Shown piece after piece: positions 3,355 through 49,265 of a stretch of 49,265 bases of DNA. A model generated the notes under the pieces. The model was given only the letters and a program-made list of their open reading frames with translations, was not told the origin of the DNA and searched no databases. Within the stretch, counting starts at the first letter, position 1. Each line of letters starts with the position of its first letter. Position numbers and translations under genes: made by a program. The DNA is from a bacterium (GTDB lineage: Bacteria > Zhuqueibacterota > Zhuqueibacteria > Oceanimicrobiales > Oceanimicrobiaceae), in NCBI GenBank assembly GCA_046757165.1, contig JBHHXT010000015.1, forward strand, positions 1-49,265, in the 5' to 3' direction.

Positions 3355-3711
3355 GTGGACAGAAAGCTTTACTGCTATCGCGCGACCATCATTAGTGTTT
3401 ACGACGGAGACACCGTTCGCGCGGACATTGACCTGGGTCTCAAAACGTGGGTCAAGAATGAAAAGCTGCGGCTGGCCCGCATCAATGCTCCTGAACTCCG
3501 CGGGGACGAGAGAGAAGCAGGCCTGGCAGCACGGGACTTTCTGCGCGACAAGATTCTCGAGCACGATGTGATCATCGAAACACTGAAGGATAAGAAAGGG
3601 AAATACGGCAGGTATCTGGTCGAAATCTGGCTTGAACAGGAGGGGGAAGAATCTATCAACGTCAACGACCTGATGGTTGAGGCCGGACATGCGGACTACC
3701 ACGATTATTGA
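3355..3711 (+). CDS. Thermonuclease (SNase-like) family protein
   Basis: VYDGDT, RLARINAPE and GKYGRYL staphylococcal-nuclease motifs; AAGGA RBS; no signal peptide. Confidence 0.85.
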   Translation: MDRKLYCYRATIISVYDGDTVRADIDLGLKTWVKNEKLRLARINAPELRGDEREAGLAARDFLRDKILEHDVIIETLKDKKGKYGRYLVEIWLEQEGEESINVNDLMVEAGHADYHDY

Positions 3712-3726
3712 CCCTTCGGACAAAGA

Positions 3727-3927
3727 ATGAAAACCCTGAAAAACTTCTTAAAACCGAAATTTATCCTCGAATGGAGAGCGCTGTGGAAAGAGTACGGCTT
3801 CAAGGAATTCCTCAGGCGTAAAGGCTGGAAAGTCATCGTCGTGATCTTCGTGTTTTACCTGGTTCGAGATTCGTTCCTGTATCTTCTCTTGCCCTATCTC
3901 GCGGCGCGCGGGCTGCTTGGTTGTTGA
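3727..3927 (+). CDS. Small hypothetical membrane protein (66 aa)
   Basis: Fills the gap between co-oriented genes; basic N-terminus followed by a hydrophobic segment. Confidence 0.6.
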   Translation: MKTLKNFLKPKFILEWRALWKEYGFKEFLRRKGWKVIVVIFVFYLVRDSFLYLLLPYLAARGLLGC

Positions 3928-3969
3928 ATCCTGTTGCAGCGCTAATCTCAAAAATGAAAGGACGCAAGC

Positions 3970-5220
3970 ATGGCTGGAGATCGAGTCGCGATCATTGCCG
4001 GAACCAGAACGCCATTTGTGAAAGCTGGAACCGTGTTCAAGAGCCACTCGGCACTCGACCTGGGGGTCCATTCGGTTAAGGGACTCATCCAACAACACGA
4101 TGTGCCGGTGGCCGCCGTTGACGAGCTTGTCTTCGGCATCGTCATCCTGGATCCCCGAATTCCAAACATTGCCCGTGAAATCGTGTTCAACACGGAGCTG
4201 TCCGCTCAGGTGCGGGCCCATACGGTCTCCAACAATTGCATCACAGGCATTCATGCGATCACCGCTGCTTACGACTCCATCATGCGCGGCCGGACAGAAA
4301 TCGCCATCGCCGGTGGCGTCGAGTCCATGTCCAATCCGCCAATCCTGTTCAGCAAGGCGTTTTCGCGCCTTTTGATGGATGCCACGTCGGCGAAAACGCT
4401 CGGCGCGCGCATGGGCCAGTTTCTGAAAATCCGGCCCTGGCATTTCAAACCCAACGCCCCGGCGATTGCGGAACCCTCCACCGGCCTGAGTATGGGCGAG
4501 CACACCGAAATCATGGCAAAAGAATGGCAAATCACCCGTGAAGGGCAGGATGAAATTGCCTACCGGAGTCACATGAACGCTCACGCTGCAACGGAGGATG
4601 GCCGGCTAAAAGCAGAAATCCATCCGCTCGACGGCGTCGCGCACGATTTGACTATCCGCTCAGATACGACGCTGGAGAAATTGTCCCAATTGAAACCCGT
4701 CTTTGACCGCAGCTCGGCAGGCACCATCACCGCAGGCACCTCCAGTCCCCTGACCGATGGCGCTTCCGCTGTGCTTCTGATGTCCGAAGCGCGAGCCAAA
4801 CAAGAAAAGCGCGAGCCGCTGGCCTTCATCAAAGCCTTCGAATACGCTGCCATCGACCCGAAGGATGGGCTGCTCATGGCGCCGTGTGTTGCGGTGCCGC
4901 GGCTGTTAGAAAAAGCAGGCCTGACTCTGGCAGATATGGACCAGGTAGAAATACACGAGGCGTTTGCTGCGCAGGTGCTCTGCAATCTCAAAGCCTGGGA
5001 GCAGGGATGGAAGGAAAAGGCCATCGGCCAGGTCGACCAGGAGAAACTGAACCTGCTTGGCGGCTCGATTGCGACGGGCCACCCGTTTGCAGCAACCGGC
5101 GGCCGCATTGTGACAACCCTGGCGAATGAAATGAAACGGCGCAGAGCAAGATACGGCCTTGTGAGTATTTGTGCCGCCGGAGCGATGGCAGCAGCGATGA
5201 TTCTGGAGAGGGAGGCTTAG
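3970..5220 (+). CDS. Acetyl-CoA C-acyltransferase (thiolase, FadI-like)
   Basis: RTPF, catalytic Cys in SNNCITG, HEAFAAQ, GHPFAATG and SICAAG thiolase motifs. Confidence 0.9.
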   Translation: MAGDRVAIIAGTRTPFVKAGTVFKSHSALDLGVHSVKGLIQQHDVPVAAVDELVFGIVILDPRIPNIAREIVFNTELSAQVRAHTVSNNCITGIHAITAAYDSIMRGRTEIAIAGGVESMSNPPILFSKAFSRLLMDATSAKTLGARMGQFLKIRPWHFKPNAPAIAEPSTGLSMGEHTEIMAKEWQITREGQDEIAYRSHMNAHAATEDGRLKAEIHPLDGVAHDLTIRSDTTLEKLSQLKPVFDRSSAGTITAGTSSPLTDGASAVLLMSEARAKQEKREPLAFIKAFEYAAIDPKDGLLMAPCVAVPRLLEKAGLTLADMDQVEIHEAFAAQVLCNLKAWEQGWKEKAIGQVDQEKLNLLGGSIATGHPFAATGGRIVTTLANEMKRRRARYGLVSICAAGAMAAAMILEREA

Positions 5221-5222
5221 CT

Positions 5223-5978
5223 TCAAATAATATAAAGACTCTTCAACGCCTCGCGCGCCGCATACTGTTCCGCCCGCTTCTTGCTGTTGGCCGTTCCTTT
5301 GCCGAGCACGTCATCCTGAATCTTGACTTCGATGGTGAAAATTCGTTCATGGTCGGGCCCTGCTACGGCATGCACGTGGTAGCACGGCGTGCCGAGATTC
5401 TGGCTCTGCGAGTACTCCAGCAGCATGCTTTTGAAATTCGTGTGCAGCTCGTCCTTGATAATATCATCGAAGTTGCACAGGATTTTGTCCTCGACGAAAA
5501 GCCGCACACTTTCCAGCCCACCGTCGAGATAAATGGCGCCGATGATTGCCTCCAGAGCATCTGAGTTGATGGAAGCCCGGTTGCGCCCGCCGGATTTCTC
5601 CTCGGCGTCGCTCAGCAGAAAGAAATTCCCCAGCTTCAGGGCGCGCGAAATCTTGGCCAGAATCCGGCGGCTGACCACCAGTGATTTCATGTTCGTCAGT
5701 TCGCCTTCTTCTTTGTGGGGATAGCGATGGTACAGAAATTCGATGACCACCAGACCGAGAACCGCGTCTCCCAGCAATTCGAGTCGTTCGTTAGAATGAA
5801 TCCGATGTTCTTGCGTGATAGGAAGGAAGGATCGATGCTTGAGGGCTCGAATGAAGAGTTCCTGGTTTCTGAAATCGTAACCGAGCGTCTCCTTGAGTGC
5901 CGAAAAATCGATCTTGTGTATGCTTTCCTCAGGAGGGGGAAAGATACGCTTGAGTGGAAGCTTGATCCAGTTGAGCAT
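5223..5978 (-). CDS. rnc: Ribonuclease III
   Basis: NERLELLGDAVL signature and C-terminal dsRBD (GPDH...SKKRAEQ); ATG 5978 preferred over TTG 5993. Confidence 0.95.
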   Translation of the reverse strand: MLNWIKLPLKRIFPPPEESIHKIDFSALKETLGYDFRNQELFIRALKHRSFLPITQEHRIHSNERLELLGDAVLGLVVIEFLYHRYPHKEEGELTNMKSLVVSRRILAKISRALKLGNFFLLSDAEEKSGGRNRASINSDALEAIIGAIYLDGGLESVRLFVEDKILCNFDDIIKDELHTNFKSMLLEYSQSQNLGTPCYHVHAVAGPDHERIFTIEVKIQDDVLGKGTANSKKRAEQYAAREALKSLYII

Positions 5979-6011
5979 ACCCGAAGCAGCCAAAGTTAGC
6001 GGATGACGAAC

Positions 6012-7268
6012 TTACTCGGTAAAGTTCTTCACGATAATGGATACATTGTGTCCCCCAAAACCAAACGAGTTTGACAGCGCAGCTCTCACTTCTCTCTTTT
6101 TCGGCTCGTTTGCGGTGTAGTTTAGATCGCATTCAGGATCAGGCGTTTCCTGGTTGATGGTTGGGTGTACACAATCGTAGTAAAGCGACAACACCGATAC
6201 GATAATCTCAACGCCGCCGGAGGCACCAAGCAGATGGCCGATCATGGATTTCGTGGAGTTGATGTTGATCTTGTAGGCGTGGCCGCCAAAGACTTTCTTA
6301 ATGGCGTTGGTCTCTGCCACGTCGCCATGTGGCGTGGAGGTGCCATGGGTATTGATATAGTCGATATCCTGCGGCTGCAGACCGCCTCGTTTCAACGCCA
6401 GTCGCATCGCCTCCGTTGCGCCATCACCACCAGGGGCAGGAGCCGTAATATGGTAAGCATCTGCGGTATATCCGACACCGGCGATTTCTCCGTAGATGTT
6501 CGCGCCGCGGTCAAGGGCGTGCTCGAGACTTTCTAAGATAAGCATGCCCGCCCCCTCGCCCATAACAAACCCATCCCGGTCCTTGTCAAACGGACGGCTC
6601 GCTTTTTCAGGCGCATCATTGCGGGTGGAAAGCGCCTTCATGGCATTGAAACCACCAACGCCGAGCTGCGTAATGCAGGCTTCCGCCCCGCCCGTAATCA
6701 TGATATCGGCATCCCCGCGCGCAACGGTGTGGAACGCCTCGCCCAAGGCGTGTGAGCTCGAAGCACAGGCCGACACGGTGGTGAAATTGGGCCCGTTCAA
6801 CCCGTAGCGAATCGCAATATATCCTGGTGCAATGTCTGAGATCATCATCGGAATGAAAAACGGGCTAATTCGCCTTGGCCCGCGCTCGAAGAGCGTGCGA
6901 GATTGTGCTTCGAAGGTAGTCATGCCACCGATGCCCGAGCCGGTGATCACGCCAACCCGTCCTCTGGCTTCCTTTTCAAAGTCCAGGCCCGCATCCTCAA
7001 CCGCACTCACCGCCGCAGCAATCGCGAATTGGGTGAACAAATCCATCTTGCGGACTTCCTTGCGGTCAAGAAAATTGTCCGGCTCGAAATCTTGAATCTC
7101 GCCAGCAAACTTCGTCACAAATTCAGCCGTGTCAAATCGGGTGATCTGTGTGATGCCACTCTTGCCTGCCAGCAAATTCTGCCAAAACGTCTGGACGTCG
7201 TGGCCCACTGCCGACACGACCCCCATGCCGGTGACAACGACTCGTCTTGAATCCAACCTGGTAGTCAT
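6012..7268 (-). CDS. fabF: 3-oxoacyl-ACP synthase II
   Basis: RRVVVTGMG, SACASS, HGTST, KSMIGHLLGA and SNSFGFGGHN motifs. Confidence 0.97.
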   Translation of the reverse strand: MTTRLDSRRVVVTGMGVVSAVGHDVQTFWQNLLAGKSGITQITRFDTAEFVTKFAGEIQDFEPDNFLDRKEVRKMDLFTQFAIAAAVSAVEDAGLDFEKEARGRVGVITGSGIGGMTTFEAQSRTLFERGPRRISPFFIPMMISDIAPGYIAIRYGLNGPNFTTVSACASSSHALGEAFHTVARGDADIMITGGAEACITQLGVGGFNAMKALSTRNDAPEKASRPFDKDRDGFVMGEGAGMLILESLEHALDRGANIYGEIAGVGYTADAYHITAPAPGGDGATEAMRLALKRGGLQPQDIDYINTHGTSTPHGDVAETNAIKKVFGGHAYKININSTKSMIGHLLGASGGVEIIVSVLSLYYDCVHPTINQETPDPECDLNYTANEPKKREVRAALSNSFGFGGHNVSIIVKNFTE

Positions 7269-43674: not shown

Positions 43675-44592
43675 TCAAAATCGTCCCACCAGGGAAAACC
43701 GGTTTAGCGAGCCCACCTCTCCAAAAGAAGAAAAGGAATAATCGACGTTAAACGTATTGATCTTGAAGCCAAGCCCGAATGAAACGCCGGCAAACCGGTC
43801 TTTGTCTGTGTCCACCTTCTGGTCCTGGCCAACCGAATTGTAGCCCAAACGCGCGAACAGTTGCTCTGTCAGGGCGATTTCGCCGCCAACGCGAAAATCG
43901 AGGCTCTCCTCTTCATACTTGACCACCGCTGCGCTCAACATCACGGGGAGGTGCTCCAGGGTTTTTGAAAAGCCGAATTGCACGTTGAGCGGCAGGTCAT
44001 CCTCGGTTTCGATGAACGCACTGGTCGTCGTTCCTAAATTGAAGACAGCAAAACCGAGGTTCAATTTCTTGTCAGGAATCGCGAAAATGACTCCCGCATC
44101 CAGCGCCACTGCCGTCTGTGTAAGATTGTCTATCTGAAACCGAATATATTTGACACTCGCCCCCGCCGACAAATTCTTGAGCAGAGGTTTTGCGTACGCA
44201 ACCGAAAGCACCAGCCCGCTGGCGCCAAATTCGCCGGTGTTTTGGTTGCTCTCGTCCCTGCCCTCGAACTGGCCAAAATCGATAAAACTCAGTGCGACTG
44301 AAGCGGTACTATTCGAAAACGGATGGGCATAGGCCAGGAATCCGGACTGGAAGTCGAGCAGATGGTTCAGGTACGACAGCGTCCCCTGTCTCTTGTGGAT
44401 GGCTGAGACACCCGCCGGATTGTAGGCAATATCGTGAATGTCGCCTGGAATCGCGACGAACGCGCCACCCATGGCAGAAGGCCTGGCGCCAACCAGGGTG
44501 CGCAAGAAATCATAGCCGACCGCAGTTTGGGATTGAAGCGTGAATGGGAAAAACAGGACAACGAAAACAGAGAGGCAAGAGTACTTCTTCAT
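43675..44592 (-). CDS. PorV/PorQ-family outer-membrane beta-barrel
   Basis: Signal peptide, FL...GARPSAMGGA...YNPAG motif, alternating beta-strands and C-terminal Phe. Confidence 0.8.
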   Translation of the reverse strand: MKKYSCLSVFVVLFFPFTLQSQTAVGYDFLRTLVGARPSAMGGAFVAIPGDIHDIAYNPAGVSAIHKRQGTLSYLNHLLDFQSGFLAYAHPFSNSTASVALSFIDFGQFEGRDESNQNTGEFGASGLVLSVAYAKPLLKNLSAGASVKYIRFQIDNLTQTAVALDAGVIFAIPDKKLNLGFAVFNLGTTTSAFIETEDDLPLNVQFGFSKTLEHLPVMLSAAVVKYEEESLDFRVGGEIALTEQLFARLGYNSVGQDQKVDTDKDRFAGVSFGLGFKINTFNVDYSFSSFGEVGSLNRFSLVGRF

Positions 44593-45023: not shown

Positions 45024-45100
45024 TGGAGCCACCTGTCGGAGTCGAACCGACGACCTGCGCATTACGAATGCGCTGCTCTGGCCAGCTGAGCTAAGGTGGC
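45024..45100 (-). tRNA. tRNA-Thr(CGT)
   Basis: 77-nt cloverleaf: acceptor GCCACCT/AGGTGGC, anticodon arm GCGCA-TTCGTAA-TGCGC, GTTCGA T-loop and encoded CCA. Confidence 0.97.
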
Positions 45101-45187: not shown

Positions 45188-48100
45188 TTACAGGCTGCCT
45201 CTGCGCCGCAGCCAAACAAATCCGGTGCTCAGGACCACCAAAGCCAGGAGGAGCCAGACCAGCCAATTGGGTGAATGCTCACGTCCGGGGTCCCCATACA
45301 GGACAAACGAGGCCCAATAAAACGGATGCTGATGGTAAGCACCGCCCTGCTCGTTGACCTGGTTGAGGACATCCCGCTTCGCCTGCCAAAGCGCCTCCGC
45401 CTTGGACCTGCCCTGCCCGAGATAGTAGCCATAAAACGCCGGCATCAGCTCCGAGGCAAATCTATCATCGACTTTCCAGGTTGTCATCAAAACGGACCGG
45501 GCGCCGCCCTCGAGAAACTGTCTCGGTAAGCCCAGGAGTCCCTCACCCTTGACAACCTGGCCGCGTCCGGTTTCGCAGGCGCTGAGGGTCACAAGCTCAC
45601 AGTCCAGCTCATAATCCGGAATCTCGTAGCCCATCAAGATGCCGTCATCAGTCGAATCCTCGCTGGCCGTCAGAATCAGGCCGGAAAAATCCGAGAACAC
45701 GGTGTCTGAAAACGCATGGGTCGCAAAATGCAGAATCTGTGTCTCTGGTGCGTGGGCCCGCAGGTTGGCTTTGGTCGCCAGGTTGCGAGCCAGGATCGTG
45801 GTGTTGGGGTGCAGGGATCGGATCGCCACGGCCTCTCGCTTTGCATACTCCAGCGGCTCGAAACTCCACGGGACGCTGAACCGCAACGCCGCTTTGCGTG
45901 TGAAGCCTGTTATGGTCCCCTCAGGACTGGCCACCGCCAGCACACGCGGCCGGGAGGGTGTCCGGCCCGATTCAGTCTCGAGAAACGCACCCGGGCTATA
46001 GGCAATGGCGTGCTCTAACCCGAAAAACTTGTCTTTGTAGGATGGAACATCCAGGGGCGTGTATCTCGGTTTCTCCGGCGCCTCCTGCAGCAACATCTCG
46101 AAAGGCAGCTTCATCAACGCGAAATCCGGGACAACCAGGATCTTTTCAGGCAGGGTAAACTGAGCCACCACCGGCTCGACAAGCGATTGATACAGCTTAT
46201 GGGCCATGTCCGCCCGAAACACCACGCTGTCGAGCTGCCCTTCCTTCACATTGTGGAGCGGCCCCAACAAGGCGTCGATGTCCCTGGCAAGCTCGGAGAC
46301 CTCTAACTGCAGCAATACGAGTTCCGCCTGCCCGTCGTACGCGACCAAAGCAAAGGACCGCTCTTCCGAAATATGGTATTGTACGTAACCCAAATCGGCC
46401 TGCTCGAGATAGGCCAGCACACCTTCGAGAGTTGGAATTCTGATGGCCTGGCGTGCCCGGGCGCTGCTATCGGCGGCAAAGGCTCGGAGCTTTTGCGCTT
46501 CCAGGGTATATCGTGCTGCCTCCAGCTCTGTCAACAAATCGATCAGCTCACCATCCGGAACGTATCTTTCTTTTTGCTCCCGGACCCGGCGCTGAACGAT
46601 TCGCAGTTGCTCGCGTGCCTGCAGGTATGCGCGGGAATGGGACGGGAGGGCTGTTCTCTGCCGCGCCTCTTTCAAGACACGGCTTCTGCCCAACTGGTAG
46701 AAATAAAACAAGCTGTCAAGGGCGGTGCGCTGGTGATTTCTTTCGTAAGAATCAAGATAGCAGTTGACCAGGTTTTGGTAAACCATGAACCCGTCGACAA
46801 AGTAGCCTTGCCGCAACTGCGAAACTTGAATTTTGTCTCTCGTCTTTTCCATAATGCGAGCAGCCTTTTTGTAGGAGGCGATCGCCTTTTGGGACTGATT
46901 CTGCCGCCGGCAGGCATTGCCATATCCCAGGTAAATTTCCCAGAGCATTTCGGTATTTTGTAGTTCGAGGGCGGTCTGCAACGCGAGCTCGTAGTAGCTT
47001 AAGGCCGAGGACAAACTGTCCAGGGCAAGTTCAACATCTCCCAACCTCAGCAGGGTCCAGCCTTCGCTCGTGCGCGCTCGAGCATCTCTGGAAGCTTTCA
47101 GGGCTTTGAGATACTCAATCCGCGCCTTATGGTAATCCCGTTCGAGCAAATAACAAGCGCCCAACCATCTTTGCCAGGTATAGAGGCGTCTTTTAAGATG
47201 TCGTGCTTCCAGGAATGAAATGAGTTCTCCGTAAAGCTCACGCGCTTTGCCGAAACGCCCTTTAAGGCGAAAAATATGGCCCAGCCTTGCCTTCGCCTCT
47301 TTCTCGCGGTCGTGCAGTCCCCCCTCGTGTGCGATGTCCAGAGCACGCAGCAGGGCATTTTCTGCCAGATCGACTTGTTTGAGCGCAATCATAATCGTCG
47401 CTTTGTCAAAAAATGTCTTGATCGCGGCATCCCTGGACTTCGCTTGCGGCAAGACATTTTCGCTCTTGCGGATGAGCGCCAGGGCATCCTGGTACTTGCC
47501 CAAAAAGTAGCTCGTCATGGCCAGTCCTCGATAGCGGTCGGCGACTTCGCTCTTGGCCGTCAAGGGGGTGACGTTTGCAATCGCTTCTTGAAAATGAGAT
47601 TCCGCTTCGGAATAGTCCCCCATCGCCATTTCTGAAAAGGCCAATTGCCCCATAATGTACGCGACCTGCCTTTTGTCTGCGATGGTGCTTGCGATCTCAA
47701 CGGCCTGCGCATAGTATTCTCTCGCCTCTTTGTACGTCCCAACGGTCTCCTTCAAGTATCCCAGGTAGGATAAGAACTCTGCCTCGGCCCTGAAGTTCTT
47801 TTCACGACGCGCGAACCGGTACGCTTGCTGCCAGACCGAGTCAGCCGCCTCATGTTGTCCGGTTGTGACATAACAGTTGGCCAGGACATGCAAAACCGTT
47901 AAATCATGAGAAAGCGAAGACGGCAGGTCAGTAAGAATCGGCAAAGCCTGGCGATCCTGATAACGTGAATAATGGTAGAAGGCGGCTACCGCATTCAGGA
48001 GCGAGGCATCGGATACGAGCTGTTCAAGAACCTGTCGGCCATCTGAGATTTCTGCATGCGAGACATCAAATTCCACAAACTCCTTGAGAAGAGCCATTGG

Positions 48101-48592
48101 TGGCCTGCGCTGATCGACACTCCTGATGGCCTGAAGATAGGCGTCGTAGGCATCCGATAGGCTTCCTTCCATTCTGAAAAGCCTGGCGAGCATCCATTGA
48201 CTGTTTGGCTCGTAAAGCGCCTCCCGGGATAGACGCTGAAAATACGTTATGGCCGTATTTTTTTGATCGTGGATGATGTACTGCTCGAGGAGCGTAAGAT
48301 AGGCACGCTCAAAGGCAGGGTGGTCTGCAATGAAACGCCTCAAACCCGCGTAGAGGTCAGCCAAAGGTCTGGTTTTGCTGGAATCCAGGAGCGTATTGAG
48401 TTTCTCATGAAGCTGGCCAAGAGTCTGGCCGGAAACTCCTGGCATTCCGGCCAGACCCATCGCAGCGGCTCCCTGCCCGAAAGGCACGGCCAGCTCGAAG
48501 CATAACGTCAAATAACAACAAACAACTAAGACTCGTCTCCGCAAATGTGGACTTGCTCCAGGAATGGGCCGGTTATCACAGCCAAAACTCAT
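45188..48592 (-). CDS. TPR-CHAT domain caspase-like protease with predicted signal peptide and C-terminal membrane anchor
   Basis: Many TPR-like helices, LVVPD, LPFE, LHFATHA (His), LSACETG (Cys), HPFYWASF and a C-terminal hydrophobic helix followed by RRR; start uncertain (48637, 48592 or 48544). Confidence 0.9.
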   Translation of the reverse strand: MSFGCDNRPIPGASPHLRRRVLVVCCYLTLCFELAVPFGQGAAAMGLAGMPGVSGQTLGQLHEKLNTLLDSSKTRPLADLYAGLRRFIADHPAFERAYLTLLEQYIIHDQKNTAITYFQRLSREALYEPNSQWMLARLFRMEGSLSDAYDAYLQAIRSVDQRRPPMALLKEFVEFDVSHAEISDGRQVLEQLVSDASLLNAVAAFYHYSRYQDRQALPILTDLPSSLSHDLTVLHVLANCYVTTGQHEAADSVWQQAYRFARREKNFRAEAEFLSYLGYLKETVGTYKEAREYYAQAVEIASTIADKRQVAYIMGQLAFSEMAMGDYSEAESHFQEAIANVTPLTAKSEVADRYRGLAMTSYFLGKYQDALALIRKSENVLPQAKSRDAAIKTFFDKATIMIALKQVDLAENALLRALDIAHEGGLHDREKEAKARLGHIFRLKGRFGKARELYGELISFLEARHLKRRLYTWQRWLGACYLLERDYHKARIEYLKALKASRDARARTSEGWTLLRLGDVELALDSLSSALSYYELALQTALELQNTEMLWEIYLGYGNACRRQNQSQKAIASYKKAARIMEKTRDKIQVSQLRQGYFVDGFMVYQNLVNCYLDSYERNHQRTALDSLFYFYQLGRSRVLKEARQRTALPSHSRAYLQAREQLRIVQRRVREQKERYVPDGELIDLLTELEAARYTLEAQKLRAFAADSSARARQAIRIPTLEGVLAYLEQADLGYVQYHISEERSFALVAYDGQAELVLLQLEVSELARDIDALLGPLHNVKEGQLDSVVFRADMAHKLYQSLVEPVVAQFTLPEKILVVPDFALMKLPFEMLLQEAPEKPRYTPLDVPSYKDKFFGLEHAIAYSPGAFLETESGRTPSRPRVLAVASPEGTITGFTRKAALRFSVPWSFEPLEYAKREAVAIRSLHPNTTILARNLATKANLRAHAPETQILHFATHAFSDTVFSDFSGLILTASEDSTDDGILMGYEIPDYELDCELVTLSACETGRGQVVKGEGLLGLPRQFLEGGARSVLMTTWKVDDRFASELMPAFYGYYLGQGRSKAEALWQAKRDVLNQVNEQGGAYHQHPFYWASFVLYGDPGREHSPNWLVWLLLALVVLSTGFVWLRRRGSL

Positions 48593-48653
48593 CTGACGAT
48601 TGGCTTCCGGCGTTTCACAAAGTCTTTGATGAATCAAAGCAGAAGCGGCTCGT

Positions 48654-48680
48654 CAAAACACGGTCGCAGACCGTGTTGGA
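48654..48680 (-). repeat. Dispersed palindromic repeat, copy 2
   Basis: TCCAACACGGTCTGCGACCGTGTTTTG; differs from copy 1 by one compensatory base pair. Confidence 0.7.
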
Positions 48681-48832
48681 TCATTTCAGACCTTTTCGGC
48701 AGTTTACTCTATCATTTGCTTTTTCTGTCTCTGCGAGACTCTGTCCCGCACGGGCGGGACGTTTAGATAACAACCTCCCCAATCCGGAACCAAAAAGGTT
48801 CTCATAAATTGAGCGGTTCCTGACCGGGCGGC

Positions 48833-48889
48833 GGTGTTCAAGCTTCAGCTTGCTGGGGGGGAGGAGAAACACGCTAAAACGTGAACACC
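48833..48889. repeat. Inverted pair of REP-like hairpins
   Basis: GGTGTTCAAGCTTCAGCTTG (+) and GGTGTTCACGTTTTAGCGTG (-). Confidence 0.55.
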
Positions 48890-48960
48890 CTCATTCTGAA
48901 CACCTGAACCCGTTGAAAGTTTAGAAAAAAAGCTGTCCCTGTAACTTACATAATAGTAGC

Positions 48961-49010
48961 CCTGAGTTGTAAAGTCTTGCTAAAAAACGGCACAACTTTA
49001 CAACTCAAGG
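48961..49010. other. Long hairpin downstream of the repeat ORF
   Basis: Perfect 13-bp stem TGAGTTGTAAAGT/ACTTTACAACTCA. Confidence 0.65.
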
Positions 49011-49043
49011 ATTGAGGTTGACCCAGTTATTCCTGCACACACC

Positions 49044-49265
49044 TTAGCGTGGTGGACGGCTCGAACCCGCTGACTCATCTTGCTCACGCGGCTGGCTCGA
49101 ACCGGCCGACTCATCCTGCTCACGCGGTTGGCTCGAACCTGCAGATTCATCCTGCTCACGTGGTTGGCTCGAACCTGCCGATTCATCCTGCTCACGTGGT
49201 TGGCTCGAACCTGCCGATTCGTCCTGCTCGCGCGGTTGGCTCGAACCGGCAGATTCATCCTGCTC
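49044..49265 (-). CDS. Tandem-repeat protein (EQDESAGSSQPR)n, 5' end outside the window
   Basis: The frame starting at 49265 reads EQDESAGSSQPR x5 then EQDESAGSSRPPR-TAA; differences among the five exact 36-bp units are all synonymous third-position changes. Confidence 0.85.
   Translation of the reverse strand, partial: EQDESAGSSQPREQDESAGSSQPREQDESAGSSQPREQDESAGSSQPREQDESAGSSQPREQDESAGSSRPPR

Follow-up and report, generated by a model that had tools for sequence, protein, structure and literature searches.

Genes at the locus

We analysed a window of 49,265 nt (contig C15 of genome G000), the end of which is a contig break. Next to this end lie, both on the minus strand, a gene for a repeat peptide and a gene for a TPR-CHAT protease, with the following features.

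49044..49265 (-): repeat-peptide gene, 3' part; six 12-aa units, the last ending SSRPPR-stop
48650..49010 (no strand): dispersed repeat elements in the spacer that separates the peptide gene from the protease gene
45188..48592 (-): TPR-CHAT protease gene; 1134 aa from ATG 48592; predicted periplasmic, with a C-terminal anchor
48461..48592 (-): predicted signal peptide, identified by eye from RRR, a hydrophobic core and GQGAAA
46835..47950 (-): TPR superhelix, residues 230-601, Pfam TPR matches
45290..46207 (-): CHAT catalytic domain, residues 811-1116, Pfam CHAT E=1e-58
45716-45718 and 45575-45577 (-): catalytic codons of His974 and Cys1021
45191..45265 (-): C-terminal transmembrane helix and basic tail RRRGSL
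45024..45100 (-): tRNA-Thr(CGT), directly downstream; the cassette's end at this locus

An earlier note on this DNA had described an ORF of 12-aa repeats about 450 nt upstream of, and co-oriented with, a TPR-CHAT protein of about 1,130 aa that keeps its His and Cys. This observation was confirmed: the repeat is a 36-nt array, 452 nt separate the stop codon of its gene from the protease ATG at 48592, and the protease has 1134 aa from that ATG (1149 aa from the alternative start TTG 48637, ORF 45188-48637). The interpretation built on it is partly supported, as described below.

The motif LHFATHA starts at residue 969 of the protease and LSACETG at residue 1018. Both His974 and Cys1021 are unchanged in 64/64 aligned homologues, and they align with His862/Cys907 of PDB 8ROT, the sole CHAT match of our PDB search (E=0.0036). 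The family profile matches the TPR structures of LGN/Pins, NprR and Rap (RapF, RapJ), a generic match. An N-terminal hydrophobic, signal-like stretch was found in 62/64 homologues and the C-terminal anchor in 61/64. The protease is predicted to be periplasmic and membrane-anchored.

The repeat-peptide gene

The minus-strand frame 49044-49265 translates as five copies of EQDESAGSSQPR followed by EQDESAGSSRPPR and a stop codon. TRF placed the 36-nt array at 49058-49265 (5.8 copies, 91% matches). The N-terminus, which the earlier note had expected beyond position 49265, was found on contig C177 (positions 1-104, locus L001). There, the ribosome-binding site AAGGAGG and an ATG precede the EQDES frame, and the leader MQKKQVQPITRA is followed by one more unit. 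The whole product, both contigs joined, is MQKKQVQPITRA-(EQDESAGSSQPR)x~7-R, about 97 aa. The note had also considered that the repeat might be the tail of an unrelated large protein; the repeat ORF is a stand-alone small gene.

C177 and the window end share 32 exact bases, a sequence unique to these two contig ends. In three runs, a Logan contig that terminates in the repeat matches the CHAT contig in depth (22.8/26.7/29.1 vs 22.5/25.1/25.8), and identical gene order was seen on single contigs of relatives. We accepted the join for these three reasons, and C15 and C177 are very probably adjacent. No Logan contig crosses the whole repeat array; a rough depth estimate, with assumed piece lengths, gives 6.6-7.4 units.

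Six units are not terminal, five of them in the window and one on C177. Across these, 8/8 variable columns of the 36-nt unit fell at third codon positions and all were synonymous. The in-register antisense frame is likewise invariant, but it has no listed start codon. None of 6108 candidates of 40-128 aa was a homologue of the repeat peptide at E<=0.001, and the leader was not found again at any of 4207 RBS-ATG starts in the genome, apart from scattered chance-level matches. At L002, whose protease is sister to that of G000 (100% support), the corresponding gene encodes a 39-aa peptide that has 6 of the first 17 residues in common with the G000 peptide, and the RBS spacer is identical in the two genes. 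The array might be a recent neutral expansion in a decaying, functionless small ORF, as the lack of homologues, the low-complexity sequence and a genome rich in repeats would allow. The synonymous columns, the strong RBS, the position and leader homologous to L002, and the occupation of this position in relatives (45/45 pairs, below) make this most improbable.

The spacer repeat elements gave 138 BLAST hits on 101 contigs, with a peak near 48790-48910, and are not cassette-specific. The paralogous C20 protease contains a repeat-like stretch, QQDESAAS. This stretch lies in a variable loop and is missing from the sister L011, and we attribute it to chance.

Neighbouring genes

On the C177 side, upstream of the repeat gene, are genes for a divergent ECF sigma, an HxxxCxxC protein and a membrane anti-sigma/TPR-like protein. 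The ECF sigma/anti-sigma neighbours that the earlier note expected are thus present. Neither C177 nor the 3' end of the window showed the RiPP-modifying enzyme or the transporter that it also expected; the only C39 domain found is on C293, away from the locus. Beyond the cassette lie uxaC/uxuA/TRAP/GntR on one side and tRNA-Thr/PorV-like on the other. Consistent with the note's remark that no CRISPR component was visible, neither cas genes (Cas7-11 and Csx30/Csx31 included) nor CBASS genes were seen among the flanking genes examined.

The G000 sigma scores weakly (TIGR02989, E=0.0024, no Pfam match). Two relatives retrieved with the G000 protein as query, L050 and L053, exceed the TIGR02937 cutoff, and the family has an Atlas score of 0.97 to sigma clusters. 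Profile comparison with one ordinary ECF and a PDB sequence search gave no match; relatives give weak matches to NF041236, with E values from 5e-5 to 2e-3 that fall far short of the cutoff. Pfam returned nothing for the sigma, the zinc-finger-like protein, the anti-sigma or two slot proteins. We call the membrane protein anti-sigma-like on the grounds of its topology, its position and Atlas TPR matches. The genome also encodes RseP (TIGR00054 above cutoff, on C64).

A variable slot between anti-sigma and protease

The cassette is kept in KSB1/Calditrichota relatives. We took a census of 56 non-redundant full-length TPR-CHAT homologues. An anti-sigma-like gene lies within 4 kb of the protease in 46/56, and a sigma-family gene is also present within 7 kb in 31/56. 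All 45 distinct anti-sigma/protease pairs enclose an ORF of 39-282 aa. A five-gene cassette, made up of sigma, zinc-finger-like and membrane anti-sigma-like proteins, a short peptide and TPR-CHAT, is conserved in uncultured bacteria. The earlier note had asked whether short-repeat ORFs precede homologous TPR-CHAT genes; this stands for the position of the ORF and falls for the peptide sequence, for which no homologue was found at 40-128 aa.

The slot ORFs are hypervariable and often Pro-rich. PPP was found in 23/68 slot-region ORFs vs 13/563 background ORFs, and duplicated short motifs in 7/68 vs 2/563. On a FastTree tree of the protease, motif duplication changes its label at least five times on well-supported branches. 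Duplicated short motifs in several unrelated slot proteins fit the earlier idea of a multivalent ligand. The loci are mutually related and were picked by similarity, so p-values given here overstate the significance. At L014, L179 and L012, the duplicated motif belongs to a duplicated domain.

No constant downstream effector was found in 30 genes scanned, which were picked from 45. These included four vWA/CLCA-like, four alpha-2-macroglobulin, two oligopeptidase F and two ECF sigma genes, single caspase, CHAT and Schlafen matches, and nine without family.

A hydrophobic N-terminus is lacking in 22 of the 56 slot products; a further 17 are N-out/C-in-like, which would place their tails in the cytoplasm, and 17 are exported-like, with Sec or lipoprotein-like signals. 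Hence 39/56 lack an export signal though the protease is predicted to be periplasmic, a compartment mismatch. The peptide might never meet the protease and might instead be co-transcribed and act in the cytoplasm, as an output of the sigma regulon or as its modulator, for instance by partnering the sigma or the HxxxCxxC protein, while CHAT senses an outside signal, as has been proposed for DdvA. The seemingly cytoplasmic tails of 39/56 products suit this, as does the operon-like spacing, since most slot genes start no more than about 200 nt from the stop of the anti-sigma and many within 40 nt. However, the signals of the 17 exported-like products do not, nor does the company that the short ORF keeps. 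Among eight loci without anti-sigma, it accompanies the protease, there without sigma and anti-sigma, in six (L155, L149, L180, L020, L172, L090) and is absent in two (L006, L018). After the anti-sigma of the CHAT-less loci L025, L026, L050, L052 and L053, it was not seen. We consider this explanation unlikely.

Monitoring-substrate arrest peptides are encoded by uORFs of sec/yidC and combine an N-terminal targeting signal with a conserved motif at the C-terminus, as described in part of 10.1101/2023.09.02.556018. The slot ORF could likewise be a SecM/MifM-like translation-arrest or attenuator peptide governing expression of the exported protease downstream. Many slot products start with a hydrophobic segment and finish in a Pro-rich tail, 17/56 end in Pro, and the G000 product terminates in RPPR. 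Yet C-terminal Pro is barely above the Pro content of the tails (21%), which accounts for most of the enrichment, and the tails are not conserved. The slot ORF also departs from the description in that source: the gene that follows is not sec/yidC, and a targeting signal is missing from the G000 product. Slot motifs moreover occur N-terminally, mid-protein, in three tandem genes at L076 or, at L051, downstream of CHAT, and in G000 452 nt with repeat elements part the two genes. An arrest peptide is very doubtful.

A conserved arginine in the anti-sigma linker

One linker column of the anti-sigma-like proteins is R43/K2/S1 of 46 (Arg/Lys in 45/46). The residue after the Arg/Lys is G27/S10/A4/T2, and it is small in 43/46. 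The linker Leu-Arg/Gly (the slash marks the bond) is a candidate cut site of the protease. The Arg also occurs in 8/8 similar anti-sigma homologues that have no co-oriented CHAT next to them, and it is missing at this column in 6/6 from a second cassette type with its own TPR-CHAT. Because it is kept without CHAT and absent beside another TPR-CHAT, the linker Arg may be structural or a binding site.

The earlier note had offered the repeat protein itself as substrate, a polyprotein cut into identical peptides. In this model CHAT would cut at each QPR/EQ, or after the leader at ITR/A, and release identical signalling 12-mers. The product does have the layout of a multi-core RiPP precursor, a 12-aa leader followed by about seven identical units, under purifying selection. 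Arg ends every unit, and the linker motif would suit an enzyme specific for Arg; as a precedent, metacaspase 4 frees Pep1 from Propep1 by Arg cleavage (10.1101/2020.03.09.983940). On the other hand, P1' would be Glu in the repeat vs a small residue in 43/46 linker sites. The whole product has neither signal peptide nor dibasic sites, and the locus has no modifying enzyme or transporter. Furthermore, several duplicated motifs of relatives put Pro after Arg/Lys (GRPVSQKPD, WRPTPVRPD, ARPP), a modest enrichment (63 observed vs 47-52 expected). Most proteases are unable to cut Arg/Lys-Pro bonds. A polyprotein is possible but quite unlikely, and the anti-sigma linker is the better substrate candidate. 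An "uncleavable decoy" role of Arg/Lys-Pro was also considered; it is weak (p 0.057 with a whole shuffle to 0.003 with a local shuffle, 15 patterns) and serves as a lead only.

A proposed peptide-gated sigma switch

Gene order, peptide anatomy, the catalytic dyad, the conserved Arg and the presence of RseP in the genome are directly established. Our preferred, still tentative reading from sequence is that the cassette is a peptide-gated proteolytic sigma switch, a split, CRISPR-free relative of DdvS/DdvA with a lineage-specific peptide. The TPR-CHAT, predicted to be periplasmic, would cut the anti-sigma linker after the conserved Arg, RseP would complete the cleavage, and the ECF sigma set free would turn on a gene-expression programme. 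That CHAT cuts the anti-sigma is reasonably probable. The peptide would be a dedicated ligand of the TPR/active-site cleft of the protease, either trigger or brake, and repetition of the 12-mer would raise avidity or dose; we give an action of the peptide on CHAT slightly better than even chances. Because it has no export signal, the peptide would meet the protease only upon inner-membrane breach, neighbour lysis or by some other export route.

The switch could more specifically be a self-damage alarm, which we regard as a speculative and rather improbable reading. A lineage-specific motif would be stored away from its target, in the cytoplasm, on the cytoplasmic face of the membrane or in an exported lipoprotein. 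Upon breach or kin lysis, it would lead the periplasmic caspase-like TPR receptor-protease to cut the anti-sigma at Leu-Arg/Gly, with an ECF response. The seven-fold repeat would amplify the signal, and the hypervariable motif would give kin specificity.

The cassette pairs a candidate ligand, a synthesisable 12-mer, with a candidate cut site, Leu-Arg/Gly, for one enzyme. Dozens of natural cognate and non-cognate pairs are on offer, and the question can be tested directly in vitro. If the sigma switch is real, it would represent peptide-gated caspase-like signalling outside CRISPR and possibly a programmable peptide-to-protease sensor.

Comparison with known systems

Our literature search, which covered a minority of subscription papers, did not find a split sigma/anti-sigma/peptide/TPR-CHAT cassette; DdvA table S7 or the ECF-classification supplements may contain contexts of this kind. 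In the DegS-RseA-RseP-sigmaE pathway, the site-1 protease is peptide-gated. DegS is a PDZ serine protease, whereas the enzyme here is a clan CD cysteine protease with TPR. RRNPP sensors are cytoplasmic TPR receptors that read a short self peptide, whose propeptide is Sec-exported. The working of the cassette would be similar, with a TPR superhelix and a short self peptide (the NprR/RapF/RapJ profile match being generic), but the receptor here is predicted to be extracytoplasmic, in the periplasm, and the peptide has no signal. KEX2-processed repeat proteins carry a signal peptide, and dibasic KR/RR sites separate their repeats; the G000 peptide lacks both. With multi-core RiPP precursors it shares the leader and repeated cores, but no modifying enzyme or transporter is present at the locus.

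Under the self-damage reading, the cassette would resemble plant Propep1/metacaspase 4, in which an Arg-cutting caspase-related protease handles a peptide precursor upon damage, an analogy and not a homology (10.1101/2020.03.09.983940). Like ECF54 as described in part of PMC8999054, the cassette has an ECF sigma and a CHAT-domain protein in conserved context, with proteolytic control proposed. In that description, ECF54 has no anti-sigma and is accompanied by carboxypeptidase and subtilase genes, whereas here there are a membrane anti-sigma-like protein and a peptide.

The type III-E Craspase (PMC10028731) comprises Csx29 (TPR-CHAT), Csx30 and CASP-sigma, as described in 10.1101/2023.06.23.546230 and PMC11506125. 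As proposed here, a TPR-CHAT protease cuts an anti-sigma-like protein and frees a sigma. A further, weak resemblance lies in the NF041236 matches of the sigma's relatives. Craspase is cytoplasmic and activated by Cas7-11 and target RNA, whereas the protease here is predicted to be periplasmic and no adjacent cas gene was seen.

The closest comparison is DdvS/DdvA of Myxococcus xanthus, given here as in the relevant part of PMC11506125, which also outlines the RIP pathway. DdvA, the best-studied periplasmic TPR-CHAT, is proposed there to be its own site-1 protease and to cut a flexible linker; CHAT-mediated cleavage is described as not yet demonstrated and the activating signal, proposed to be phage-derived, as still unknown. 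The CHAT of this type is dimeric and has no three-helix motif. Both systems have an ECF sigma, RseP (site-2 protease for DdvA and the candidate one here), a single membrane span with a flexible linker, a zinc-type anti-sigma domain, and a TPR-CHAT with a His-Cys dyad that is periplasmic in DdvA and predicted to be so here. DdvA is one polypeptide, whereas here protease, membrane anti-sigma and HxxxCxxC protein are three genes, and the protease carries a predicted signal peptide and C-terminal anchor of its own. Also unlike DdvS/DdvA, no CBASS/CRISPR genes were seen in the examined flanks, a hypervariable peptide gene lies between anti-sigma and protease, and the candidate signal is this self-encoded peptide.

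The repeat-peptide gene

The ORF of 12-aa repeats that the earlier note had seen upstream of a TPR-CHAT gene is real. It runs off the end of the window (contig C15 of genome G000, a Zhuqueibacterota bacterium), and the 5' part and upstream genes very probably lie on a second contig, C177.

Window 49058-49265, minus strand coding: 36-nt tandem array
C177, upstream of the repeat gene, co-oriented: 215-aa protein, candidate sigma
C177, upstream of the repeat gene, co-oriented: 148-aa protein ending in HxxxCxxC
C177, upstream of the repeat gene, co-oriented: 396-aa single-span membrane protein, TPR-like towards its C-terminus

On the minus strand the window translates as five copies of EQDESAGSSQPR, then EQDESAGSSRPPR and a stop. 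Among six non-terminal units compared, all eight variable columns are synonymous third positions, so the reading frame is under selection. The in-register antisense frame is likewise invariant, and no start codon is listed for it in the ORF listing.

A six-frame scan of the genome found the tandem 12-mer only at the end of C15 and the start of C177, which share a 32-base exact overlap absent elsewhere in the genome. Public contigs were taken from four runs of one hydrothermal vent metagenome study; three of these runs may be where this DNA came from. A repeat-ended contig (1-3 kb) shows the four differences that the C177 end should have, and its depth equals that of the CHAT contig in three runs; none of these contigs spans the whole array. 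Roughly budgeting the read depth puts the array at about 7 units. From the overlap, the public contigs and the depths, the gene is reconstructed as RBS-MQKKQVQPITRA-(12-mer)x~7-R, about 97 aa, without a signal peptide. Extension past the window thus supplied the precursor N-terminus, and since the gene has its own RBS and start on C177, the repeat is not the tail of a large protein, a refuting condition named in the earlier note.

The intergenic DNA at 48650-49010 belongs to an abundant dispersed repeat family (138 matches on 101 contigs), which probably accounts for many contig breaks in the assembly. At 43675-44592 (minus) lies a PorV-like outer-membrane protein gene (Pfam E=9e-5, weak and under cutoff), upstream of aminotransferase class V, CutA-like and ExbB/ExbD-like genes labelled by eye. 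A second repeat-peptide gene of G000, on C268 (L219, ~3600-6023, + strand), encodes 99 aa with a Sec-like signal and IDPMPRPPK x4; a 388-aa membrane-like protein without Pfam match and a sigma54-type AAA+/Fis activator follow. It belongs to a different cassette, and no CHAT was seen near it.

Sigma and anti-sigma-like neighbours

The 215-aa protein has no Pfam match and its own sigma matches are weak. Relatives retrieved with it exceed the sigma70-ECF cutoff, and Atlas groups it with sigma clusters at 0.97; by sequence we call it a divergent ECF sigma. We infer an anti-sigma role for the 148-aa and 396-aa proteins from gene position, topology and the zinc motif (E=0.083 against the RsrA model). 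In this putative form the ECF sigma/anti-sigma neighbours anticipated earlier are present on C177. Farther upstream are unrelated uxaC, uxuA, TRAP and GntR genes.

Sigma and HxxxCxxC pairs also occur without anti-sigma or protease (G000:C201, L055; G004:C30, L029), and on their 3' side are genes labelled by eye as Rieske-like and nucleotidyltransferase-like.

The TPR-CHAT protease

The protease (1134 aa; Pfam CHAT E=1e-58) begins 452 nt past the stop of the repeat. The His and Cys noted before, His974 and Cys1021, do not vary among 64 aligned homologues and line up with the PDB 8ROT dyad. In length and in its His862/Cys907 numbering, 8ROT agrees with DdvA, the Myxococcus anti-sigma-TPR-CHAT protein (PMC11506125). 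The protease starts with a signal-like segment, as do 62/64 homologues, and ends in a membrane anchor and basic tail, as do 61/64, so it is predicted to be periplasmic. Its TPR part has a generic likeness to superhelices that bind peptides, NprR and Rap among them.

Conservation of the cassette in relatives

Loci were fetched with two anchors, the protease and the sigma. Among the closest matches, those bearing taxon labels are mostly KSB1 and Calditrichota. We retained 56 of 92 non-redundant matches (full-length, high-scoring, at least 1.4 kb upstream) and dropped 36. An anti-sigma-like gene lies within 4 kb of the protease in 46/56 (45 distinct pairs, one being a tandem duplicate), and a sigma-family gene is also present within 7 kb in 31/56; among loci lacking the latter, some have an ordinary ECF and some are truncated. 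In all 45 pairs the gap, or slot, holds one to three short ORFs of 39-282 aa, a raw count with no chance baseline and with two assignments hand-picked. A short ORF remains beside the protease in 6/8 loci lacking the anti-sigma.

The sister protease, L002 (~45% identity, 100% support), has a signal-less 39-aa slot peptide; it and the repeat peptide agree at 6 of their first 17 residues, and the two genes have the RBS spacer in common. A paralogous full cassette in the same genome (G000:C20:17791-28083, L056) has an identical layout with an unrelated 188-aa slot protein, which ends GSGDGEPPNGPGGGEDPFP; an exported vWA protein is encoded after it. The L056-type slot domain has a lipoprotein-like signal in L007, L008, L010 and L068 and none in L056, L011, L017 and L143; in the protease tree all eight fall on a single branch. 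L025 (3373-3471) and L026 carry a 32-aa ORF with a CFS-stop ending and a weak DUF1858 match, possibly the beginning of a longer, recoded protein.

What lies downstream differs between loci (vWA/CLCA-like, alpha-2-macroglobulin, caspase, oligopeptidase; a tRNA in the G000 locus), hinting at envelope or defence outputs with no fixed effector. Alpha-2-macroglobulin, a protease trap, is encoded directly 3' of the putative protease switch in L009, L076, L165 and L186.

A second cassette type (L022, L023, L048, L049, L051, L054) has the order sigma, zinc-finger-like, anti-sigma-like, ~450-aa and ~290-aa proteins, N-anchored TPR-CHAT. Where the DNA extends, a small membrane protein follows whose N-terminus is Pro-rich; that of L051 has three GNGDEGIQPPPPP units.

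Slot products

Taken together, the slot products share no common ancestry: some are short peptides with a membrane helix, others lipoproteins, peptides lacking a signal, or domains of 140-220 aa. Their common traits are a Pro/Gly/acid-rich segment and a tendency towards duplication of a short motif. PPP occurs in 23/68 slot-region ORFs versus 13/563 small ORFs of G000, and a duplicated short motif in 7/68 versus 2/563; p-values for these comparisons overstate because kin loci are not independent. The duplicated motifs are GRPVSQKPD, WRPTPVRPD, KRPKPVTP, ARPPSGADTS, KEPTPPPEGG and GGPKPEGR. In three cases an entire domain is duplicated, the motif being its best-kept part; L076 has three peptide genes in tandem. 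On a FastTree tree of the proteases, the duplication label requires at least 5 changes over well-supported branches, with groups assigned manually and 25 rows ungrouped.

That the protease cuts the repeat precursor into peptides is a distinctly unlikely reading. The leader-plus-cores layout fits it and Propep1/metacaspase gives a precedent (10.1101/2020.03.09.983940), but P1' in the repeat is Glu, and Pro follows Arg or Lys in several related slot motifs. Still less probable is an arrest peptide, for which the slot ORFs fall short of published criteria (10.1101/2023.09.02.556018).

A candidate cut site and proposed mechanism

The anti-sigma-like linker between membrane span and TPR is variable but for one near-fixed position (Arg in 43/46, Lys in 2/46). 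The residue before it is mostly Leu/Phe, and the one after it is Gly, Ser, Ala or Thr in 43/46. From sequence this looks like a candidate cut site with P1 Arg and small P1'. Separase cuts after Arg, and for DdvA the proposal is that its CHAT domain cleaves a linker of this kind ahead of RseP action (PMC11506125). The Arg is retained in 8/8 similar homologues that have no co-oriented CHAT beside them (a convergent CHAT adjoins two of these) and absent in 6/6 homologues of the second cassette type, so it may instead be structural, or cut in trans. At G000:C272:666-5162, an exported TPR-CHAT lacking the C-terminal anchor is convergent with a zinc-finger anti-sigma-like membrane TPR protein, whose linker has the same Arg-Gly.

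Given the linker Arg, the RseP encoded in the genome, the DdvA precedent and the TPR likeness to peptide binders, we adopt a tentative model, to which we give somewhat less than an even chance: the peptide would gate the protease, the protease would cut the anti-sigma, and RseP would then free the sigma. Compartment is the chief fact unexplained by the gating model: by simple hydropathy and charge rules, 17 of 56 slot products look exported, 22 have no hydrophobic N-terminus and 17 look N-out/C-in, and the enzyme is predicted to be periplasmic. Either the peptide works in the cytoplasm on a target other than the protease, or the signal consists in its reaching the periplasm; we consider each of these unlikely, to the same degree.

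Comparison with known systems

The cassette works like the Myxococcus sigma/anti-sigma pair DdvS/DdvA but falls outside that type because the defining fusion is missing. By the features tested it is not a member of Craspase (the type III-E CRISPR-linked TPR-CHAT protease), a RRNPP system or a RiPP cluster, and the repeat peptide is not a KEX2-type protein. ECF54 has CHAT neighbours and is described in PMC8999054 without an anti-sigma; the cassette has an anti-sigma-like gene. The caspase/ECF neighbourhoods described in PMC8195603 are different ones. Literature searches turned up no account of a split cassette that carries a variable peptide, although supplements and subscription papers may contain one. 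The locus adds a seven-fold core, a candidate cut site and a compartment puzzle, and the census adds repeated independent motif duplication in slot products.
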